Of a stretch of DNA of 64,000 bases, positions 18,932-57,046 are shown piece after piece. Under the pieces are notes generated by a model. The model searched no databases and had not been told where the DNA came from. It saw nothing but the letters and a program-made list of their open reading frames with translations. The translations under genes were made by a program, and so were the position numbers. Origin of the DNA: Bacteroidota bacterium (GTDB lineage: Bacteria > Bacteroidota > Ignavibacteria > UBA10030 > BY39); assembly GCA_030682385.1 (NCBI GenBank), contig JAUXOG010000075.1, positions 1,825 to 65,824 of the forward strand. Direction: 5' to 3'. The stretch's first letter is position 1, and every line of letters starts with the position of its first letter.

Positions 18932-21900
18932 ATGACGGACGATTACATCCCCAAATCTTCAGATGAATGGAAATCTTGGCTTGCTGAGCAAGAGAAGATA
19001 AACATTGAAGTTTATCTCAAGCAGCCACAACGTATTATTCAAGATTACAACACTGAAAAAGAAACCACACGAGATTATATCGGTCGTGAAATATTCGAAT
19101 TATTACAGAATGCAAACGATGCAGCTGCTGAAGTAGATCAACGCGGAAAGGTCCTCATTGAACTTACGAATGATCTTCTTATAGTTGCCAATAGTGGTGA
19201 ACCATTTTCAATTGGTGGTGTTAATTCACTTCTCTTTAGCCATATTAGTCCTAAGAAGAAGCGTAAGAATCTTATAGGTCAAAAAGGCTTAGGTTTTCGT
19301 TCAGTTCTTAATTGGTGCCAACAACCGACTATCTTTAGTGGCCATCTTAACCTTGCATATCAAGAATCAAAACGTAAAATACTTTTTGATAAACTTATAT
19401 CCAAAAAAGAAGAAATCGCTACACTTATCAAGAGAGAACGAGAATATCCGGATGAAGTCATAATTCCCACTTTACCATTCCCATGTTTTATCGACGCTTC
19501 TTCAGTAATTAGCGATCAATTGTTTAACAAATTATTCAAAATACGAAATCAGAACTACGATACCGTTATAGGCATACCATTTGACAAACCGGAATACTAT
19601 ACGGAAGCAAAGAAACAGTTGGTGTCTCTAGATTCTGCTATCATGCTATTTGCAGGGTCACTTGATGAAATACTGATTCGAATAGACGATGAAATTTATA
19701 GTCATTGGATGGTGGAAGAACGCGACAAACAGAAACAAACTGCGACTATAAAATGGCATGATTCACAGAAGATCCACTGGCAGATCTATGAACATAGTGG
19801 GGTGATCAATAACACGCAGAGCAGTATAAAGAGTGATTTGGGAAATGAATATACAATGATAATCGCGATTCCGAAAAATCAAAAAGTTGATTCTTCGACA
19901 CCTTTGTTCTCTTTTTTCCCTTTAGAACTGAAATTTCCATTTCCGGTTTTTTGCCATGTAACACTTGAATTGGAAGGTAATCGAAAACATCCACGCCCGA
20001 GTGCATCAAATATTGCTATTCTAAAAGAACTCACAAAGTTTTTTGCAGAAAAAGCAAGCCAACAAGATATTAGTGATGACCCATGGTCGAGAATACGTCT
20101 CCTTGCGAGGTCAAGTGAACTTGATAAATTCTTGGCAGACATTGATTTCGACAAAATCTTAATCGAGGAGGCAAGAAGACTTAACATCGTTCCAACGTTG
20201 GGTGGGATGCATCTCACTGCATCTAAAACTAAACAAATTAATGCCAAAAAGGTTCACTGGTTACCCCAAGAGCAATTTTCTAATATTGCCCTTTCACCTT
20301 CTTCAACGGAAATAACAAATTTTTATAATGCACTTGGTATTGAATTTATTTCAAATGGTGATCTAACTGAAAAATTAAACATGGTTGAGTTTCCAGATAT
20401 TGCTGCGCGGGCAACATTGATTGCGAATTTAATTAAACATAATTTGATTCCTGAAAATCCCGTTCCCCATCTCCTAATTGAGCAATCGGGCAGTAGGATA
20501 ACTGAAAATAGTCGCACCTTCTTACAATCTCGAGAGCAGAAAGTATTTGAGAGACCCGAATGGCTTAATATTCAATTTCTCCACGATGAGCTCAGGATAA
20601 AGCTGATGGAGCAGCTTGAGTTGACTGAAGTTCGTGAACTTCGTCAGAAATTATCTCCATTTGGTGTAAATGAATATTCACTAAGTTCTATAGCTTCTGC
20701 GCTTATCGCAGAGGCGAACAAAAGGATTACGTCTGAGCCTACTAAGAAAAAAGAAACTTACGATGATCTATTTATTACGTTGTTTTATCTCTATTCACAG
20801 CGTGGTGAAGCATCATTCCCTGAGGACATTGCCGTTCCGTTACGCACAAAAGCTGGTTCTTATGAAAGTGCAAAAACACTTTATTTCAGTGAGTCGTATA
20901 GTGTGAATGGTGATTGGCTCTCGGAATTGTACAAGTTGACACCAGATAAGTTGTTGGCTAATTTAAGCGATTTGGGTGTCGATGGTAACGATCTAAATTA
21001 TATTTCTTTTCTAAAGTGGATCGGTGTGGCAGATTTCCCACGAGAAATAATCCTTGATTCAGTTGAAAACTCTTACAAAAATTATGTTCTTGATTCATTA
21101 CCATATGAACCCGATGGAATAATTCTCGGTGAATATAAATATAAAAGAAGGGAGGATTTCAATGAGCCGGAAATTAGATCTATCAAGTCCTTTGATGGGA
21201 TTGAAAATTTCCCAAAGGCTGATCCGGCCGCAATAATAGTATGGTTAGCGTTAGATTCTCGTTGTAATCAATTGAGATCGAATCATCCATCTTTTGCATT
21301 GTTAACAGATCGTCCCTCAGGAGTCCGAAGATGGAATCGTAAAACTTATACTGGTCCAATACCTCACTATGCTAAATGGGGACTTGAAAGCTCATCGTGG
21401 TTAATAATAACCGATGGATCAAAAAGAAAACCATCTGAATGCATGATTGGGGAAAAGAGTCTTGAGAAAATATTTCCATCACCCGCAAGATTCAAGCATC
21501 CTTTATTTGATAAATATCTCCATGATCCTATTATGTTTCGAAGAGCATGGGAAAATGCTGGTGTTATTCCTGATGTAAATTATTTGTCGCGTAATCAAAT
21601 CAAAGATATATTAATCGCATTGCCTGAAAAGAACCCGAGCGGTGAATCCACAGGAACATTTTACAGAAACATTCTAGATGAAATCCGCACTGGAAATTTG
21701 GAGTGGGATGGACCAGATTATGATTTTATTTCAAATGGAAAAATGTGGGGAAAAGGTCCTGAAGGATTTAAATATTATCAAGTGAATGAACTACATCATA
21801 CAGATTCGCAGCAATTCCCAGAAATACTGACTTCAAAATTAAAAATGGTTGACCTACCAAAACGTTATCGCAATACAGAGATTAAGCATGCGTTCGGAAT

Positions 21901-23119
21901 AGAGCCATTGGATTCGACAAAACTCAAGTTTACTGATATCCAATTCGAAAAAAGGCCGGAAAGTGATAGCCTTCAATCACAATTTAATCAGATTAAACAT
22001 TTACTTCTAGCTTTACGTCCACCCAAATCAAGGAAGTCAAGTGAAGTTTCTAATTTTCGTGCGATCGAGTTAGTAACATGTGCTAAAATCGAGGTTGGGA
22101 TAGCGTATGAGTTGATATCTATCAAGACAGAATTTATAGAAGCTTTTAAATGGATCATCAAAGATGGGAAAGCGTTCATTTTAGTCCCAGATACACAGAA
22201 TGCTTCATTCCGTTCAGCAGTATGTTCGCGGAGTGTCGGACAAATAGTAGCCAGTGTTTTCAATTTGGAGAATCCTACTGAGTTTGCTTCCATCATTCAA
22301 GCTGATGAAGCCGATAGACATGAATTACTCAAACAAATGTTGGGTGAAGAAGTATTGCCGGATTTAGACAAGCTTAAACAAGAATTAAAAACGGATGAAG
22401 CACCCCTTCCTCCAATTATTATTCCACCCTTAGAAAATGGTAATCACACTTCTACACCATCAGGAGGTGCAAAACCACCAATTGGATTCCCTCCAACAAC
22501 CGTTACGCCAGCTACTCCTGAACCGCCGGTTCCAATATCTACAGATACTGTAAAGATATCTCCCGAAGAACATGAACCATCCCCACCGAAGAAACCAAAA
22601 GAAGTTGTGAGGAAAAAGGAAAGCGTTCCAACATTTGGCGGAGGAGAGACAAAAAGAGTTACTAATTGGAAGCGTTGCGAAGAACTTGCTGTTGTATTTG
22701 AAGAATCAGAGATTCGTTTTCCCATTAAGGTATCAGATATCGTTGGCTACAAGGGTCCAAAGTGCGATGTGCTTAGTTTTTCTTCAGCTGAACAACGGAT
22801 CATATTCCAACAGCTATCTTCTGATGAAAAAAATATCAACGATGTCGAGCGGTTTATAGAAGTGAAAGGTAGTGTTAATGAAAAAGGTGCAATAGATTTG
22901 AAGGGTAATGAGTTGACTGCCGCCAAGATATACAGTAATAAGTATTTTTTATATCGCATGTACGAGAAAACACAAAATGAATACTATGTTCTCATTGTCG
23001 TCAATCCACTAAACCAAAAAGAAGCACTCGAAGAGATTTGGGAAATCATCCCAGATAGAGCGAAAGATGCAACGAGGTTTCACATCGAAATTGGAATTCA
23101 GGAGATGAAGAACCCATGA
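18932..23119 (+). CDS. Giant (1395 aa) sacsin/MORC-like GHKL ATPase with Pro-rich linker and C-terminal DUF3883 (PD-(D/E)xK-like) domain. Candidate defense protein.
   Basis: N-terminal motifs: [11 protein letters not shown] (GHKL N-box) and [11 protein letters not shown] (G-box). Pro-rich segment PLPPIIIPP...[16 protein letters not shown]-terminal segment: GPKCDVLSF...IEVKGS...YVLIVV (D...E.K) in a region matching DUF3883. No signal peptide. Confidence 0.55.
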
Positions 23120-23397
23120 CATACGATTACACAGAAGATAAACTCGTTCAAGAAATCACAGTCATAAAATACGATTTACCTGAAAACAGTTATGTAACCT
23201 TGAAAATATATGATGTTTTGGGCAGAGAGGTTGTTAGGTTGGTTGATGGATTCCAAGAAGCTGGTTATAAATCTATAGAATTTGATGCTCTAAATTTGAC
23301 TAGCGGTGTTTATTTTTATAAACTTGTGGTGAGTTCATCGAACCCATTGAATGCAAATAATTATACTTCAATCAAGAAAATGTTATTAATTCGATAA
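23116..23397 (+). CDS. Orphan T9SS (Por) C-terminal sorting domain ORF (93 aa). Its ATG overlaps the stop of the giant gene (ATGA).
   Basis: Segment ...[20 protein letters not shown]...[12 protein letters not shown]...SIKKMLLIR aligns with the C-terminal domains of the two BNR proteins in this window. It lacks the upstream NPFNP and any cargo domain. Confidence 0.5.
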
Positions 23398-26813: not shown

Positions 26814-26924
26814 TATATTTTGTAAAAATTTACTTAAGTCGTACGACTAAAGCAAGTTGACTTTAGTAAATAATCTTTTTATCATTGCACAACGGTTTTT
26901 AGTTCTAATAAATTAAGAGAAATT

Positions 26925-28004
26925 ATGAACCTACATAAATATGTGGTAATACTAACGATTGTTCTTATTAGCGTTTCAGCTTCGCTATCGCTTCCGAGAT
27001 TTTCGGCACGAACAGGGATCAGTTGTCAGGGATGTCATATCAATCCGTCGGGCGGCGGTATGCGAAATTATTACGGTACTGTATTTTACGGCAGGCAAAC
27101 TCTTCCGGTAAAAAAATGGTTCGATAGTTTTGAAATTTCCAATTTTACATCTAAAATCAATGAATTTGTAAGCATTGGTGCCGATTTCAGAACTCTTTTT
27201 TATTATGTCGAAAAAACACGGAGCAGTTCTTTTTATCAGATGCAAGGGGATATTTACGCAAATCTAAAAATTGCCGAAGGTGTTTCGATGTATATCGATA
27301 AAGGTTTGTATAAGGGATTTGAGATTTTCGGGTTAATGAATATTTTGCCGGAAAATGGTTACATAAAAGTCGGACGATTCACCCCCGTCTTTGGAACTAA
27401 GACCGATGACCACACAAATTTTATACGCGCGAAAACAGTTTTTCAAAACAACCGAGCCGAAGATTCAGGGATTGAAGCAGCTACCGCCCCCGGGAATTTC
27501 GCCGTTACAGTTGGGTTATTCAACGGAGCAAGCAGTGGCGATTTATCGGATAGCAAAATTCGCCTATTGACCGGTAATGCTGATGCGAGATTTAAAATTG
27601 AGGAGATAAATTTTTCGATTGGTAGCTCGTTGTGGTTTAATAGTTTGAGTTCGGGAATAATGAGAATGTTTGGCGGCTACGGTTCGATTAATTACATAAA
27701 TATTACTGTTAACGGAGAAATAGATTTAAAGCAAGATAAATCAATTTTAGGATTAGGAACAAAAGAATTAATTTCATTGGTCGAGTTAAACTATTTGTTG
27801 TTCGATGGATTAGATTTGAAATTTATGTACGATTATTACGATTACGATATAAGATACAAAACCGGATTTGAGAGTCGCTATAGTTTCGGTTTCGAGTTTT
27901 TTCCGATTAGTGGAGTTGAAGTCAGACCCGTGTATCGATTATCTCAGGATAGGAACAAAAATAAAAATAATGAAATCAATTTTTTGATTCATTTCTATTT
28001 ATAA
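26925..28004 (+). CDS. Candidate Cyc2-like fused monoheme cytochrome c-porin outer-membrane protein
   Basis: Signal peptide, then a single CQGCH heme motif within about 15 residues. The rest is amphipathic beta-strand-like with alternating aromatics (porin-like). Confidence 0.4.
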   Translation: MNLHKYVVILTIVLISVSASLSLPRFSARTGISCQGCHINPSGGGMRNYYGTVFYGRQTLPVKKWFDSFEISNFTSKINEFVSIGADFRTLFYYVEKTRSSSFYQMQGDIYANLKIAEGVSMYIDKGLYKGFEIFGLMNILPENGYIKVGRFTPVFGTKTDDHTNFIRAKTVFQNNRAEDSGIEAATAPGNFAVTVGLFNGASSGDLSDSKIRLLTGNADARFKIEEINFSIGSSLWFNSLSSGIMRMFGGYGSINYINITVNGEIDLKQDKSILGLGTKELISLVELNYLLFDGLDLKFMYDYYDYDIRYKTGFESRYSFGFEFFPISGVEVRPVYRLSQDRNKNKNNEINFLIHFYL

Positions 28005-28024
28005 AATTTAAAAAGGAGAAAAAT

Positions 28025-28678
28025 ATGTTTACAAAAATAAAATTAATTAGTTTCCTAGCAATTTTGTCAGTTGGTTTTCTGTTTATCGGCGGATGCGAGG
28101 ATAAAGGTACCAATCCACCACCACATGGGCTTACTTTAAGCAGCACCAACGTAACATTAGCAGTAGGTGCCTCAACCAATATTACAGTGTCGGGTGGAAT
28201 TACACCTTACGACATACACAAAGACCCGGATACAACAATAGCGAAGGCAATTTTATCGGGTTCGACTTTAACAATCACAGGAGTTAGAGCAGGTCAAACA
28301 TCCGTATTAGTCCGCGACAAGCGTGAACCTGAGCGGGATACAGTGCGTGTTTATATAACTGTTACCGCAATAAGTCAGGTCTCTTTTTCCACCCAAATTC
28401 AACCGATATTCAACGCAAGTTGTACCGGTTGTCACGGAAGCTCTGGCGGGCTGAACCTTAGTGCCAGCGTCAGTCATGCAAACTTGGTAAATGTAAATGC
28501 CCAATCGAGTTGCACAACTCTTAAAAGGGTTTTGCCAACGAATGCGAGCCAAAGTGTGCTATATCTAAAAGTTGCCGGAACCGATTGTGGAAACCGTATG
28601 CCTCAGGGGGGCAGTTTACCAACTCAACAAATAAATTTGATAAACGATTGGATAACTCAAGGTGCCTTAAATAATTAA
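28025..28678 (+). CDS. Lipoprotein with Big_2-like domain and PSCyt1-like monoheme cytochrome c domain
   Basis: Lipobox ...FLFIGGC. Segment IQPIFNASCTGCHGSSGG, then CTTLKRV...DCGNRMPQGG. Confidence 0.45.
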   Translation: MFTKIKLISFLAILSVGFLFIGGCEDKGTNPPPHGLTLSSTNVTLAVGASTNITVSGGITPYDIHKDPDTTIAKAILSGSTLTITGVRAGQTSVLVRDKREPERDTVRVYITVTAISQVSFSTQIQPIFNASCTGCHGSSGGLNLSASVSHANLVNVNAQSSCTTLKRVLPTNASQSVLYLKVAGTDCGNRMPQGGSLPTQQINLINDWITQGALNN

Positions 28679-36507: not shown

Positions 36508-37653
36508 TCAACTATCTTCCGATTCCTTTCCATTATCATATTCGCTGAAATCGTAATCGTCTTCGTCGTAGTTGAATTCAACTTTGCTTTGTTTAATAAT
36601 CTCGTTGAGTATGTCGTTCAAAAAACCCTGATCGATTGTCGATTGAAACTTGATTAGTAATTCAGGGATGTTGATGATTTCTTCGATGCAGGACATATAT
36701 CGTGAGACAATAGCTTTGATTGAATACTGTCTCTCCGCTTGTTCCTGTATTTTATGTTTTATAGTATCATTTGAATCAGATGACTTCACAACGAACGTTA
36801 TCGGGTATTTCTCAATCTTGTCGATGTCTAAAAAATATTTCTTTACGTCCACAGTCTCCGTAACCTGAAAAAAACGCCCCAATGGTTTCATCACGAAATC
36901 AATACCGCCGTCGTTTGCGTTCGTGCGTCCTGTTTTATAGAGTTTGAGATTATCTTCCTGAAGGTACACGGGATCAAAACCCCAGTAGAGTTTTTGATTG
37001 TGATAGTAATACTTGAGGATGCTGTAGCTTACTATTTCAAAAATGCGTGCATCTACTGTTGACCCAAGCAAACCTGTGATAAATTCTACAAGTTCTTGTT
37101 CTTTGAATTTCTCCGCCCCTTCACAGAATTTGATAAAGCGGTCAAACGCACTTCTCTTTGCCTCAATGTAAGCGGTGATTATTTCTATTATAGACACCGA
37201 AAGATCGTTTTTCATGGACCTAATACCGAGTTTGAGAAGATGCTGATTGATCCAGTATCGATTTGTATTAGGATCTCGAAGGACGGGGATATATTCGCAG
37301 TTTGGGAAGAACTTTTTAAACTCCTCGTTCATTCGGTGATTGAGTGCGTGATTTTGCAATTTTTGACCGAATGGAAGTTCTCTCTGTCTATTAAATAGAG
37401 TTGAGAATATCGCACCCTCATAATTATTGTAATTGCCTGACCTGTGGAACCCTTTTGCAATGTAATCTTCGACCAAAACATAGATTGCGTAAAGATTGGC
37501 AAAACTCCCTCTCGATTTGGAACCTTTGTTGGCCGACTTGGTCTTAATATTGAGATACTGAATAAGCACGCTCTTTGAAAAGACCGCCTCCGATGACTTT
37601 GGAAAGTTTTTCTCTAGGATACTTTTGATCGTTTTCGTGAACTCGTGTTCCAT
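36508..37653 (-). CDS. Hypothetical protein. Candidate Type II restriction endonuclease partner of the adjacent methyltransferase.
   Basis: 381 aa, no recognisable family. It overlaps the 3' end of the MTase gene by 40 nt on the same strand, the typical Type II M-R arrangement. Confidence 0.35.
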   Translation of the reverse strand: MEHEFTKTIKSILEKNFPKSSEAVFSKSVLIQYLNIKTKSANKGSKSRGSFANLYAIYVLVEDYIAKGFHRSGNYNNYEGAIFSTLFNRQRELPFGQKLQNHALNHRMNEEFKKFFPNCEYIPVLRDPNTNRYWINQHLLKLGIRSMKNDLSVSIIEIITAYIEAKRSAFDRFIKFCEGAEKFKEQELVEFITGLLGSTVDARIFEIVSYSILKYYYHNQKLYWGFDPVYLQEDNLKLYKTGRTNANDGGIDFVMKPLGRFFQVTETVDVKKYFLDIDKIEKYPITFVVKSSDSNDTIKHKIQEQAERQYSIKAIVSRYMSCIEEIINIPELLIKFQSTIDQGFLNDILNEIIKQSKVEFNYDEDDYDFSEYDNGKESEDS

Positions 37654-38519
37654 TTGGCTTTCTTTTCAAATAGGGAGAGTGTAGTTTGTTTTTCGTCTAT
37701 TGGCGGCTGATATGTTTTCCGCTCTCTGCGTAGAGGTTCACCGTTGAACTCTGAGGCAATCTGCAATCGACGTAATCCAATCTTTACATAGTCTTCATTT
37801 ATTTCAATTCCTATCGATTTCCTTTTGAGTTGTTTTGCAACGTGTGAAGTTGTGAAGGTACCAGAGAACGGATCAACCACTAGTTCGCCCTCGTTGCTGC
37901 TTGCCTTTATAATCCTCTCTAATAATGCTGTGGGTTTTTGAGTCGGATGAATTTCGTATTCATCCATTCGGTATCTTACTCGTGGAATATGCCAAACGTT
38001 TCCTGGGACTTTCTTTGAGTTATACACAGTCGGGACTGATTTTCTGTAATCAATTAGCTTCCGGACGGCTCCAGTCTTTGCTTCGACCAGAATATCGTTA
38101 GCATTAAAGGTATAGTCTTTCTCGTCCTTAACGCAGTGTAGTATCGGCTCATATAAAGAACCAAAATACTTGCGGGCTTGAACACTTGAACTGTCGTAGT
38201 ACCAGACGATTCGAGATAAAATAATGAGCCTGTCTCTGAGGAAAAGATCGAAGTAGGGCATATTCTGAGTGGCTGTCATTACATACAGCGATCCGTTGGG
38301 TTTTAACTTCTTGATGCACAATTGAAGCCATTTGTAACACCAGTTTAAATACGAACTATCTGATTCCCACCGATCAGGAAAATCGACAAACTTCTTCCCG
38401 ATGTTATAAGGTGGATCGGCAAAAATCAGATCAACAGAATTGTCTTTTATTGCAGCAAGTGCCTCGATAGCCTCGCCCCAAACTATTTTGTGACCATTCT
38501 TCTCAAATACCTTCATTTC
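37614..38519 (-). CDS. Site-specific DNA methyltransferase (beta-class N4-C/N6-A, PF01555-like)
   Basis: Motif IV LIFADPPYNIGKKF precedes motif I VVDPFSGTFTTSHVAKQL. Confidence 0.8.
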   Translation of the reverse strand, partial: EMKVFEKNGHKIVWGEAIEALAAIKDNSVDLIFADPPYNIGKKFVDFPDRWESDSSYLNWCYKWLQLCIKKLKPNGSLYVMTATQNMPYFDLFLRDRLIILSRIVWYYDSSSVQARKYFGSLYEPILHCVKDEKDYTFNANDILVEAKTGAVRKLIDYRKSVPTVYNSKKVPGNVWHIPRVRYRMDEYEIHPTQKPTALLERIIKASSNEGELVVDPFSGTFTTSHVAKQLKRKSIGIEINEDYVKIGLRRLQIASEFNGEPLRRERKTYQPPIDEKQTTLSLFEKKAKWNTSSRKRSKVS

Positions 38520-38606
38520 TATCTTCTTCTTAATTAGTTTTTCTTCTCGTTGTCTCGAATTTAACAAATCCTACTGCAAAATCAAATTTAACGGATATGA
38601 ATTTTA

Positions 38607-39755: not shown

Positions 39756-40022
39756 TTAAGGGAAATATCTATAAATTTCTTTTCTATGAAGTATTCTTAT
39801 CATAATCACATGCTTGTTTGTTACAATAATTCCAATTCTATAATCTCCCAACCTTATACGATAGTAGTTCTTGTAGCCTTTTAACTTTTTGATATTTGAA
39901 ATATCTTCTATGCTTCTGGTTTTTTTGATCTGCTCAATCAAAAAGATAATTTTTGTAAAAAGCTTCGTTTCTTTAATCTTTAATAAATCCTTTTTGAAGC
40001 TATCTCTGTATTCAATAATCAT
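39756..40022 (-). CDS. RelE/ParE-family type II toxin
   Basis: 88 aa. Segment ...YRIRLGDYRIGIIVTNKHVIMIRILHRKEIY is typical of RelE/ParE. Confidence 0.65.
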   Translation of the reverse strand: MIIEYRDSFKKDLLKIKETKLFTKIIFLIEQIKKTRSIEDISNIKKLKGYKNYYRIRLGDYRIGIIVTNKHVIMIRILHRKEIYRYFP

Positions 40023-40264
40023 TCAACTTTTAAGATTTTATATATTTCTTTCTGAGAGATTTTTTTTGATTTATTTCCTTCATCTATAGCTTTTCCGATT
40101 CCATAATCTTCCATCGCTTCTGCGACAACACCATGGATAAACGCTTTTTCCTCTTGTATAGCTTCTTTTATAGCCGATTTTAATATTTGCTTCAGCTTTT
40201 TTTCTTGGATTTCCATTTTCGTCCATTTAAGTTTTGATTTTATTGTTTGTGGATTACAATTCAA
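40019..40264 (-). CDS. Putative antitoxin of the RelE/ParE pair. Likely start MEIQEKK at about 40216.
   Basis: Small ORF overlapping the toxin start by 4 nt. Lys/Glu-rich helical. Confidence 0.45.
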   Translation of the reverse strand: MNCNPQTIKSKLKWTKMEIQEKKLKQILKSAIKEAIQEEKAFIHGVVAEAMEDYGIGKAIDEGNKSKKISQKEIYKILKVE

Positions 40265-41429: not shown

Positions 41430-41690
41430 CTATTTCAGAGGTTCAATCTTATCCAATTTTTGATATTGTGTTGCCTGATGCCAAACCTTAGAAATTTCAA
41501 GTCTATGAATGATCGCCCATTCTGTTACCAAACCAAAGGCACGCGGTGGTAAGTAACCCGATAATATTCCCAGGTCCTCAATTAAAAATAGGGCTTCATA
41601 TTCACCGTATACTGCATGGAAATGCGGTGGTTGATGATCATTATAATAAATATAAATTATTATCCCAAAGAATCTGGAAATTTCAGGCAT
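41430..41690 (-). CDS. DUF4160-family protein (intact copy)
   Basis: Segment MPEISRFFGIIIYIYYNDHQPPHFHAVYGEYEALFLIE. Confidence 0.65.
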   Translation of the reverse strand: MPEISRFFGIIIYIYYNDHQPPHFHAVYGEYEALFLIEDLGILSGYLPPRAFGLVTEWAIIHRLEISKVWHQATQYQKLDKIEPLK

Positions 41691-41701
41691 AATATTTTTG
41701 T

Positions 41702-41980
41702 TTAAATGTGTTCAACCTGTTTGTTTAAAATGGACATAGGATCGAGATTTAAGATTTTTGCGTATAGTGTATCAGGGCATAGGTCTATCTCGTCTTTCCA
41801 TACCAAGGTATGGCTTTGAGAATCTATGCTGAAGGAGTTAAACTCTTTGGGATCTTTCCAAAGCGAGAAAACGCCTTTACCCACTAAATCCGAAAGATCA
41901 ACTATTCCTTCGACTCCGTCAGAAAATTTTATCCATATTTTGTAATTTTCCAGCGGCTTTGCTTCAATAATTTTGTGCAT
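41702..41980 (-). CDS. DUF2442-family protein
   Basis: Segment ...LVWKDEIDLCPDTLY. Confidence 0.65.
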   Translation of the reverse strand: MHKIIEAKPLENYKIWIKFSDGVEGIVDLSDLVGKGVFSLWKDPKEFNSFSIDSQSHTLVWKDEIDLCPDTLYAKILNLDPMSILNKQVEHI

Positions 41981-56208: not shown

Positions 56209-56595
56209 TTACGTTACTAAACTTTTTACTTCTTTTATTACTCTTTCAGCTAACGAAATAGAATTTTTACAAATATTTTTATCGGGATAAAAGAATGGAA
56301 GTGCACTGCCAAGAGGATATTTTGTAGGCAGGTAAATACTATCTAAGAAATCACATTCATCTTCTGTTAATTCTATTGCAATACCATTCTTTTCTAATAC
56401 CGTTTTCAATTCCATTATATTATGAGTTTTCATAAATGGAATTATATTTTCAATAAATAAAGACTTTAATGCTTTCTCTATAGATTGTTGAATATTGTGA
56501 AGGCAAGGATTATATAGTTCACTTTCAAGAAGGACTTTTACTGCTTCAAGATTCTCTTCAGAATAAGTGAGCCAACTTTTAGTTTCCTCTTGCAT
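56209..56595 (-). CDS. HEPN-domain protein (toxin-like partner of the MNT)
   Basis: 128 aa helical. Overlaps the MNT gene by 17 nt. Confidence 0.6.
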   Translation of the reverse strand: MQEETKSWLTYSEENLEAVKVLLESELYNPCLHNIQQSIEKALKSLFIENIIPFMKTHNIMELKTVLEKNGIAIELTEDECDFLDSIYLPTKYPLGSALPFFYPDKNICKNSISLAERVIKEVKSLVT

Positions 56596-56878
56596 AAATC
56601 ACTTCCCCAGATGCAACTTCACTTAAGAAAAAACTATTTTCATTTTTTCCTACGATTGGAAAAATATCAACAGCTATTTCTTTTGAAATATTTCTTATAA
56701 GTTTTCGATACTTTAATGCAAGGGTCAGATAATTATCTGAACTATTTTGAATCACTGCAATATCTATATCGTTTGGTGAATCACTGTTATTGAACGAACC
56801 AAATATTATAATTCTCTCGATTTCTTCTTGTCCTTTTAGCGAATCAACTATTTTATTTTTGAATTCAATCTTATTCAT
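56579..56878 (-). CDS. Minimal nucleotidyltransferase (MNT) domain protein
   Basis: Segment IIIFGSFNNSDSPNDIDIAV (GS...D.D motif). Confidence 0.65.
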   Translation of the reverse strand: MNKIEFKNKIVDSLKGQEEIERIIIFGSFNNSDSPNDIDIAVIQNSSDNYLTLALKYRKLIRNISKEIAVDIFPIVGKNENSFFLSEVASGEVIYARGN

Positions 56879-57046
56879 AGTGTTTTTCTTTGCTTTCATT
56901 CTATGTCTAAACATTTTACGATTTAAGAACTCTTATATTCTGAGGATTTACCACCCTCAAAATTATAATATGCAGCTTTTTGTCTCCTGCTGCATTAACA
57001 AACTATCGTTTAAAATATAAAATTAAATAATTTGAAATTCAACCAC

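Follow-up and report, generated by a model that had tools for sequence, protein, structure and literature searches.

We analysed a 64,000-nucleotide (nt) stretch of contig JAUXOG010000075.1 from an Ignavibacteria member of the Bacteroidota (assembly GCA_030682385.1), referred to below as the window, in which two adjacent open reading frames (ORFs), ORF1 and ORF2, encode a candidate fused monoheme cytochrome-porin and a lipoprotein with a c-type cytochrome domain. Our analysis makes it probable (about 0.6) that the two genes form an operon whose products move electrons across the outer membrane, related to Cyc2 and most likely serving the oxidation of Fe(II) or a similar reductant, with electrons passing inward. 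The original prediction, made from the DNA letters, had proposed a Cyc2-type porin with the product of the next gene as its electron partner; both ORFs proved to be real, on the + strand and at the positions claimed for them (Table 1).

ORF1 and ORF2 belong to a conserved operon

The ORF1-ORF2 pair is a conserved operon. In the window the ORF2 start follows the ORF1 stop after 20 nt, and these two are the only ORFs in the 64 kb that bear a CxxCH heme motif, a pairing that is not a chance pattern. Gene order was compared across 84 related loci from Ignavibacteriota and Bacteroidota, 79 of which had enough downstream DNA. An ORF2-type cytochrome was encoded within 1.6 kb downstream and on the same strand in 70 of the 79, often in two or three tandem copies, and the gap between porin and cytochrome genes was usually about 10-20 nt. 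When all neighbouring ORFs were clustered, the small cytochrome was the only widely conserved neighbour (75 of 80 loci), and the other flanking genes varied between lineages. The locus tags of ORF1 and ORF2 homologues are also consecutive in two metagenome-assembled genomes (MAGs). This synteny strengthens the proposal that the second gene encodes the electron partner of the first.

ORF1 combines an N-terminal heme motif with a predicted 16-strand barrel

The leader of ORF1 is hydrophobic and has small residues at positions -3 and -1 before L23-P24. The same holds for the family, in which position -1 is A, S or G in 97% and position -3 is A, G, S or T in 83% of 241 sequences. The single CQGCH motif begins 11 residues past the predicted cleavage site, in agreement with the signal peptide and directly following heme motif of the original prediction, and would be the site of covalent heme c attachment. 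In an alignment of 40 homologues, both cysteines and the histidine of this motif (C34, C37 and H38) are invariant, together with L23, P24, P41, G43 and R47 and, further along, M106, H163, H356 and many barrel residues. G43 and R47 are 100% conserved and M46 is 61% conserved among 157 ORF1-family sequences. The best 150 relatives share the same N-terminal pattern nearly throughout, save for fragments and a few diheme or His-rich variants, and every representative inspected among them that is not truncated at the N-terminus carries the CxxCH. Variants with a second CxxCH soon after the first, or with a His-rich stretch before the heme motif, occur among distant relatives (P0239, P0272, P0334, P0346, P0354, P0366, P0268, P0320).

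The AlphaFold2 model of ORF1 (predicted local distance difference test score, pLDDT, 75; predicted template-modelling score, pTM, 0.71) arranges the stretch from residue 82 to residue 358 as 16 beta strands. A Foldseek search of this model against the PDB returned only porins of 16-18 strands, with the top query template-modelling (TM) scores for OprP (2o4v, 0.62, 4.3 Å) and OprO (4rjw, 0.61), which also gave the lowest root-mean-square deviations. The beta-barrel body that had been expected for ORF1 is predicted by the structural model. Conservation in 157 sequences and the strand register together put residues D87, R89, Y111, E184, E265, R318 and H356 in parity with the polar face of their strands, so that the conserved barrel residues appear, in the model, to face the lumen. 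From these polar-face residues we infer that the pore is not a general diffusion channel and has a specific interior, which may hold the heme segment or guide a cation.

An ORF1 profile found no match at E up to 10 among the sequences of solved structures. Searches of Pfam gave no match for ORF1, and searches of NCBIfam gave only a sub-threshold one. Genuine Mariprofundus Cyc2, run as a control, has no match in either collection, so the lack of a Pfam or NCBIfam match for ORF1 carries no weight.

Profile comparison supports a distant homology of ORF1 to Cyc2

Cyc2 is the fused cytochrome-porin with which Zetaproteobacteria, Gallionellaceae and Acidithiobacillus oxidise dissolved Fe2+. It is defined by a signal peptide, one CXXCH, a 16-strand porin, the motif AXPXFAR[Q/K][T/Y] before the heme and PXL four residues after it (Keffer et al. 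2021, PMC8406198), and the closest templates for its porin are likewise OprP and OprO (PMC8406198). To obtain genuine Cyc2 sequences, the mass-spectrometry peptides of Cyc2PV-1 (Keffer et al. Table S1) were joined and used as a query. This query retrieved Mariprofundus ferrooxydans proteins of 426-429 amino acids (aa) and more than 100 zetaproteobacterial relatives, all of which carry E-A-I-P-A-F-A-R-Q-T-G-A-A-C-L-S-C-H-F-Q-T-F-P-A-L-N-A-F-G-R. The comparison set is thus Cluster 1 of Cyc2 (Zetaproteobacteria). Clusters 2 and 3 are more divergent, and the sequence logos differ between clusters (Keffer et al., PMC8406198); either of these may be closer to ORF1 than Cluster 1 is.

Profile-profile alignment with hhalign matched the full-length ORF1 family to Cyc2 with 96% probability (E 5e-9, 331 colinear columns), and the N-terminal 60 residues alone with 95.7% (E 1e-8). 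Among the controls, comparison of either family with the unrelated ORF2 cytochrome family gave 4-26%, reversed alignments other than that of the barrel discussed below gave 0.3-13%, and column shuffles gave 0.1%. The anticipated similarity to Cyc2-type proteins is thus present at the profile level. In hidden Markov model (HMM) searches against sequences, every alignment fell on A-x-P-x-F-A-x-x-T-G-A-x-C-x-x-C-H directly past the leader.

Counted from the first heme cysteine as position 0, the majority residues common to the ORF1 family and Cyc2 are A at -12, P at -10, F at -8, A at -7, T at -4, G at -3 and A at -2, followed by C at 0, S at +2, C at +3 and H at +4. Position -11 is L in the ORF1 family and I in Cyc2. 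The two groups thus share A-[L/I]-P-x-F-A-x-x-T-G-A-x-C-x-S-C-H with identical spacing, and in both the leader is predicted to be cut directly before [L/I]-P. Upstream of the heme, the family consensus is A-L-P-R-F-A-[S/A]-R-T; ORF1 itself reads S-L-P-R-F-S-A-R-T, with S at both A positions. These data support the view that ORF1 is a distant homologue of Cyc2 that has kept its architecture and most of its signature.

The ORF1 family also differs from Cyc2 in several respects. It has conserved barrel residues of its own (M106, H163, H356 and several Glu). Its proteins are shorter, at 355-375 aa against about 400-430 aa for Cyc2; many members have 355-364 aa and others 365-415 aa. A small cytochrome gene nearly always lies 3' of an ORF1-type gene, whereas none follows cyc2 in the one Mariprofundus locus examined. 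The mature N-terminus of cytochrome f reads Y-P-I-F-A, and its alpha-amino group is a heme ligand; the predicted mature N-terminus [L/I]-P-x-F-A of the ORF1 family and of Cyc2 resembles it and may be a further lead.

ORF2 encodes a lipoprotein with an Ig-like and a cytochrome domain

Residues C133, C136, H137 and M192-P193 are invariant among ORF2 homologues, which indicates that ORF2 is a His/Met monoheme class I cytochrome. Its description as a lipoprotein is supported by the lipobox cysteine, C24, which is kept in at least 90% of homologues. After this lipid-modified cysteine, D at +3 and G at +5 occur in 37 of the 39 lipobox-bearing homologues, within a near-fixed motif C-[K/E]-D-x-G-[T/S]-[E/D]. 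The AlphaFold2 model of ORF2 (pLDDT 89.7) comprises an Ig-like sandwich at residues 42-114 and a helical cytochrome domain at residues 121-211, the latter with pLDDT above 90.

The Big_2-like domain named by the original prediction is in line with the Ig fold and with the top Foldseek matches, which are Big_2 or Ig-like (such as the C-terminus of lambda gpV and a Big_2-CBM56 protein; probability 1.0, E 7e-6), whereas the Pfam Big_2 model (PF02368) scored 14.2 bits, below its cut-off of 22.8. This domain is confined to the closer relatives of ORF2. A similar picture holds for the PSCyt1-like domain: CTGCH and the distal Met are in place, and PF07635 is recorded for many more distant homologues, whereas ORF2 itself does not match PSCyt1 (PF07635) in Pfam, where its best score was 20.5 bits for Cytochrome_CBB3 against a cut-off of 27. 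By sequence, the nearest solved cytochrome is 4RLR, with a weak match limited to the heme-site helix (E 0.058).

Fusions of an ORF2-type cytochrome domain to the C-terminal sorting domain of the type IX secretion system (T9SS) were observed in five homologues (P0189, P0196, P0199, P0209, P0212; for example in Gracilimonas mengyeensis). Such fusions imply cell-surface monoheme cytochromes in other bacteria of the Fibrobacteres-Chlorobi-Bacteroidetes (FCB) group.

Distribution of the ORF1 family

An initial homologue search with ORF1 yielded 288 proteins, nearly all unnamed and from MAGs of Ignavibacteria or Bacteroidota, among them a hypothetical protein of a 'Bacteroidota bacterium' MAG that is 100% identical to ORF1. 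A profile search of 1.84 billion representatives, clustered at 50% identity, found 2401 family members at E up to 1e-3, 1090 at 1e-10 and 343 at 1e-30. When the clusters of ten divergent representatives were looked up, no name other than 'hypothetical protein' came back. One genome of each GTDB species was also scanned, and 207 genomes, mostly of Ignavibacteriota or Bacteroidota, encode an ORF1 relative. The best 80 of these 207 are almost all MAGs of Ignavibacteriota or Bacteroidota, from fen, peat, soil, groundwater and a deep mine.

Some loci have additional features. In one Ignavibacteriota MAG, a Cyc2-like gene has a divergent upstream neighbour whose 218-aa product is cupredoxin-like (Y-R-C-D-F-H-Y-S-I-G-M) and carries a T9SS sorting domain; genes of this type lie at L001 7092-7748 (-), L002 162-818 (-) and L014 5101-5757 (-). 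The T9SS cupredoxin was considered as a rusticyanin-like partner of the module and dropped, since only one or two genomes have it. At L003 7541-8011 (+), in the same MAG as L030, a gene for a 156-aa Haem_bd protein (PF14376) runs into the start of a cytochrome-porin gene; in some lineages it may add another heme protein to the module. Two cytochrome-porin paralogues are found on different contigs (L050, L073) of the soil MAG SMAG_U14908. An Ignavibacteria-type cytochrome-porin gene with three downstream cytochrome genes lies on a contig (L071) that is assigned to a 'Synechococcus sp. UW140' MAG and is probably mis-binned. Conserved respiratory or iron-related neighbours were also sought; besides the cytochromes, only housekeeping synteny within a subclade was found (for example, a 7TMR-HD protein and a tyrosine recombinase).

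Table 1. Positions in the window of the features of the ORF1-ORF2 locus
Feature	Position	Strand	Remarks
Promoter-like TTGACT-17-TATCAT	26857..26885	+	40 nt 5' of ORF1; 10/12 positions match; weak evidence
ORF1, fused monoheme cytochrome-porin, Cyc2-like	26925..28004	+	359 aa
ORF1 signal peptide, residues 1-22	26925..26990	+	predicted signal peptidase I cut between S-L-S and L-P; from sequence and AlphaFold2 helix 3-20
ORF1 mature N-terminus and heme site, residues 23-38	26991..27038	+	L-P-R-F-S-A-R-T-G-I-S-C-Q-G-C-H
ORF1 single CQGCH, residues 34-38	27024-27038	+	
ORF1 post-heme I-N-P-S-G-G-G-M-R, residues 39-47	27039..27065	+	family-specific; in place of Cyc2 PxL
ORF1 16-strand beta-barrel porin domain, residues 82-358	27168..27998	+	AlphaFold2 model; conserved charged residues that appear to be lumen-facing; conserved H356 near C-terminus
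Shine-Dalgarno-like AGGAG	28014..28018	+	6 nt ahead of ORF2 start codon
ORF2, lipoprotein: Big_2-like Ig domain and monoheme c-type cytochrome domain	28025..28678	+	217 aa
ORF2 signal peptide and lipobox F-I-G-G-C24	28025..28096	+	Cys kept in at least 90% of 40 homologues
ORF2 Big_2-like Ig domain, residues 36-114	28130..28366	+	AlphaFold2 beta-sandwich; Foldseek
ORF2 PSCyt1-like class I cytochrome c domain, residues 115-217	28367..28675	+	
ORF2 heme motif CTGCH	28421-28435	+	
ORF2 invariant distal M192-P193	28598-28603	+	

Proposed function and alternative readings

In the mechanism that we propose, ORF1 would be exported and its leader cut directly before L-P-R-F, one heme c would be attached at CQGCH, and the remaining 280 or so residues would form a 16-strand porin in the outer membrane, with the short cytochrome segment held in or at the barrel by the conserved, apparently lumen-facing residues. 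ORF2, as a lipid-anchored His/Met monoheme cytochrome c, would exchange electrons with the ORF1 heme, and in related genomes one or two extra small downstream cytochromes may lengthen the relay. The pore would most likely be the place where soluble Fe(II), or some similar small reductant outside the cell, is oxidised, with the electrons passed inward to the respiratory chain. The analysis shows the structure of the two genes, the heme motifs with their conservation, the barrel fold, the distant homology to Cyc2 and the conservation of the operon, whereas heme attachment, the placement of the heme segment in the pore, the contact between ORF1 and ORF2, the side on which ORF2 sits, the substrate and the direction of electron flow are all inferred. 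By likeness to the three biochemically tested Cyc2-type proteins, all of which are Fe(II) oxidases (PMC8406198), Fe2+ oxidation would be the likeliest reaction. The gene order also parallels that of the rus operon of Acidithiobacillus, in which cyc2 is followed by the cytochrome gene cyc1 (PMC10654088).

Several observations weigh against this proposal. The barrel of ORF1 alone scores 0.9% against Cyc2 in hhalign and a control with the reversed Cyc2 barrel 17%; we therefore do not claim homology of the barrels by sequence, and the relationship to Cyc2 rests largely on about 30 residues and the shared fold. HMM-to-sequence comparison with Cluster 1 Cyc2 reached only 15-25 bits, which is not significant at whole-database scale. 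In the upstream motif, the Arg of the ORF1 family stands one position later (F-A-x-R-T) than in Cyc2 (F-A-R-Q-T), and there is no Q/K. After the heme, the ORF1 family reads V-N-P-x-G-G-G-M-R and Cyc2 F-Q-T-F-P-A-L-N-A-F-G-R, so that PxL is absent from the ORF1 family, its Pro lying two residues earlier than in Cyc2 and being followed by Gly. Moreover, the function of divergent Cyc2 homologues is uncertain, as Keffer et al. (PMC8406198) warn. The heme region of ORF1 (residues 20-69) was modelled at pLDDT below 50, as is expected without the cofactor, so that the position of the heme segment in the pore is a putative one. Ignavibacteria in culture live as organoheterotrophs and iron reducers (PMC8478452, PMC7914226), for which an energetic need for Fe(II) oxidation is not obvious. 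Neither in the window nor in the related loci is the operon linked to a terminal oxidase, to a carbon-fixation gene or to any further iron-related gene. With its 359 aa, ORF1 also falls short of the 365-aa minimum applied in the Keffer pipeline and in FeGenie (PMC8406198), which is a software filter and not a biological criterion. The assignment of ORF1 to the Cyc2 type thus stands for the architecture and a distant homology, and does not extend to PxL, the position of the Arg or the minimum length.

The same two-protein conduit could run outward, to chelated Fe(III) or humic quinones, or in both directions according to redox conditions, which we consider unlikely. A monoheme relay has no built-in direction, and the relatives of ORF1 come from humic, anoxic peat and fen; a single heme in a narrow 16-strand pore, however, could not reach solid acceptors, and the potential of a His/Met class I cytochrome of the ORF2 kind is usually high, hence poorly suited to reducing Fe(III) minerals. 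Members of the Ignavibacteriales and Ignavibacteriaceae are iron reducers that carry both iron-oxidation and iron-reduction genes (PMC8478452, PMC6344600, PMC7914226), but the uniform Fe(II) oxidase activity of the three tested Cyc2-type proteins (PMC8406198) argues for inward flow. Another arrangement, quite unlikely in our judgement, would place ORF2 on the cell surface, docked on the outer face of ORF1 through its Ig domain as a minimal analogue of MtrC on MtrAB. Its post-lipobox motif resembles the acidic lipoprotein export signal reported for Bacteroidota by Lauber et al. (2016), although the match is partial. Big_2 and Ig-like domains are typical of surface proteins, and the same cytochrome domain is sorted by T9SS and exported to the surface in other FCB bacteria; yet many operon partners are plain cytochromes of about 135-150 aa that lack the Ig domain, and of 114 neighbouring cytochromes only 39 have a lipobox by a simple pattern. 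In a barrel with an even number of strands, moreover, an N-terminal cytochrome segment is expected to be periplasmic (PMC8406198).

It is highly improbable that ORF1 acts as a common porin for solutes or as a channel that takes up siderophores or heme, with a CxxCH that would bind a metal or heme for sensing or transport instead of electron transfer, and with ORF2 an unrelated neighbour. The barrel does resemble general and phosphate porins, and NCBIfam gave a very weak match to the LbtU siderophore porin (E 0.021); at 14.3 bits against a cut-off of 90, identity with LbtU was rejected. Against an uptake channel stand the invariance of the CxxCH and of the preceding Cyc2-type segment, and the presence of a same-strand cytochrome in about 90% of loci, which is hard to explain for an unrelated neighbour. 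We also hold it doubtful that the family is a separate clade of fused cytochrome-porins, defined by its own heme pocket (C-x-x-C-H-x-N-P-x-G-G-G-M-R, M106, H163, H356), a size missed by iron-gene tools and an obligatory partner that could be a surface lipoprotein cytochrome. Such a clade might provide heterotrophic Ignavibacteria with a minimal two-protein wire, for which substrates other than Fe2+ or an outward flow would be conceivable. An inward, Cyc2-related electron path through ORF1 and ORF2 remains the reading that we favour.

Significance for iron-cycling inferences

Cyc2 is the main marker gene from which microbial iron oxidation is inferred in genomes and metagenomes. FeGenie iron-oxidation genes have been assigned to Ignavibacteriales in communities in which Cyc2 is the dominant iron-oxidation gene (PMC8478452, PMC6344600), and the habitats of ORF1 relatives (fens, peat, groundwater, deep mine) match the settings of those surveys. 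Cyc2-like genes in Ignavibacteria are therefore not new, because Cyc2 or iron-oxidation genes have already been reported from MAGs of Ignavibacteriales, Ignavibacteriaceae and others of the FCB group. In the literature searched we found no description of the heme pocket of this family, of its straddling of the 365-aa filter or of its near-obligatory cytochrome partner.

Pfam and NCBIfam contain no model for the ORF1 family. Since the family straddles the length filter, part of it is silently dropped from such inferences, and longer members may be counted as iron oxidases. If Fe(II) oxidation is the true function, Ignavibacteria, as abundant heterotrophs, would have a part in the iron cycle of wetlands and aquifers; if the function is another, many marker-gene inferences for Ignavibacteria would need correcting. 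With its constant pairing of porin and cytochrome, the system is a compact one of two genes, amenable to expression and testing.

Other features of the window

The window has a G+C content of 35-45%, and several of the proteins it encodes have a T9SS sorting domain at the C-terminus. The genes flanking the ORF1-ORF2 pair encode an OPT transporter, an M24 peptidase, a STAS protein, a BNR/T9SS protein, a PEBP and a nitronate monooxygenase (NMO), and are unrelated to electron transfer. Promoter-like sites around ORF1 were no more numerous than in shuffled sequence, in a scan that did not include Bacteroidota-type promoters, and no terminator-like site was found on the + strand 3' of ORF2. No tRNA genes and no Rfam families at gathering score were found in the 64 kb.

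Several gene pairs lie on the - strand. At 39756-40264, a ParE-type toxin (88 aa) and a RelB-like antitoxin (81 aa), whose genes overlap by 4 nt, form a type II toxin-antitoxin pair. A DUF4160 gene (86 aa) adjoins a DUF2442 gene (92 aa) at 41430-41980, a recurrent small-gene pair, and at 56209-56914 the gene of a HEPN protein (128 aa) overlaps that of a Polbeta-type nucleotidyltransferase (NTase, 111 aa) in a HEPN/NTase toxin-antitoxin-like pair. At 36508-38567 (-), an N6/N4 DNA methylase gene (317 aa) overlaps the gene of a 381-aa protein without a Pfam match; the two may be a restriction-modification pair with an unrecognised nuclease. On the + strand, two overlapping ORFs lie at 18932-23397. 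The first encodes a 1395-aa protein with a sacsin-like N-terminus and a NOV_C C-terminus; its stop is overlapped by 4 nt by the second, of 93 aa, which has nothing but a T9SS Por_Secre_tail and looks like an orphan sorting-domain fragment.

Comparison with known systems

The closest known relatives of ORF1 are the proteins of the Cyc2 family, namely Cyc2PV-1 of Mariprofundus ferrooxydans, Cyc2 of Acidithiobacillus ferrooxidans and Cyt572 of Leptospirillum, distributed over Clusters 1-3 (McAllister 2020; Keffer 2021). ORF1 resembles them in its signal peptide, in the one CxxCH near the mature N-terminus and in a 16-strand porin of the OprP/OprO kind. With OprP and OprO themselves (2O4V, 4RJW), which gave the best TM-scores for the barrel, ORF1 shares the 16 strands; sequence identity is about 10% and those porins have no heme segment, so that the resemblance is one of fold only.

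The MtrCAB, MtoAB and PioAB systems are comparable to the proposed conduit in that a heme protein seated in a beta-barrel takes electrons across the outer membrane. They differ in using a separate multiheme cytochrome within a barrel of about 26 strands (PMC10654088) and in reaching solid minerals, whereas in ORF1 a single heme motif is joined to a barrel of 16 strands. MtrC would be the counterpart of ORF2 if the latter were surface-exposed. As a small cytochrome encoded directly after an outer-membrane cytochrome, ORF2 parallels Cyc1 of the rus operon, although the latter is a c4 cytochrome with two hemes and ORF2 is monoheme. With PccH of Geobacter (PDB 4RLR) and the PSCyt1 family (PF07635), ORF2 shares the class I-type monoheme pattern of a CxxCH and a distal Met-Pro. 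It is set apart from these small monoheme cytochromes by its lipid anchor, by the additional Big_2-like domain and by scores that reach no Pfam cytochrome threshold.

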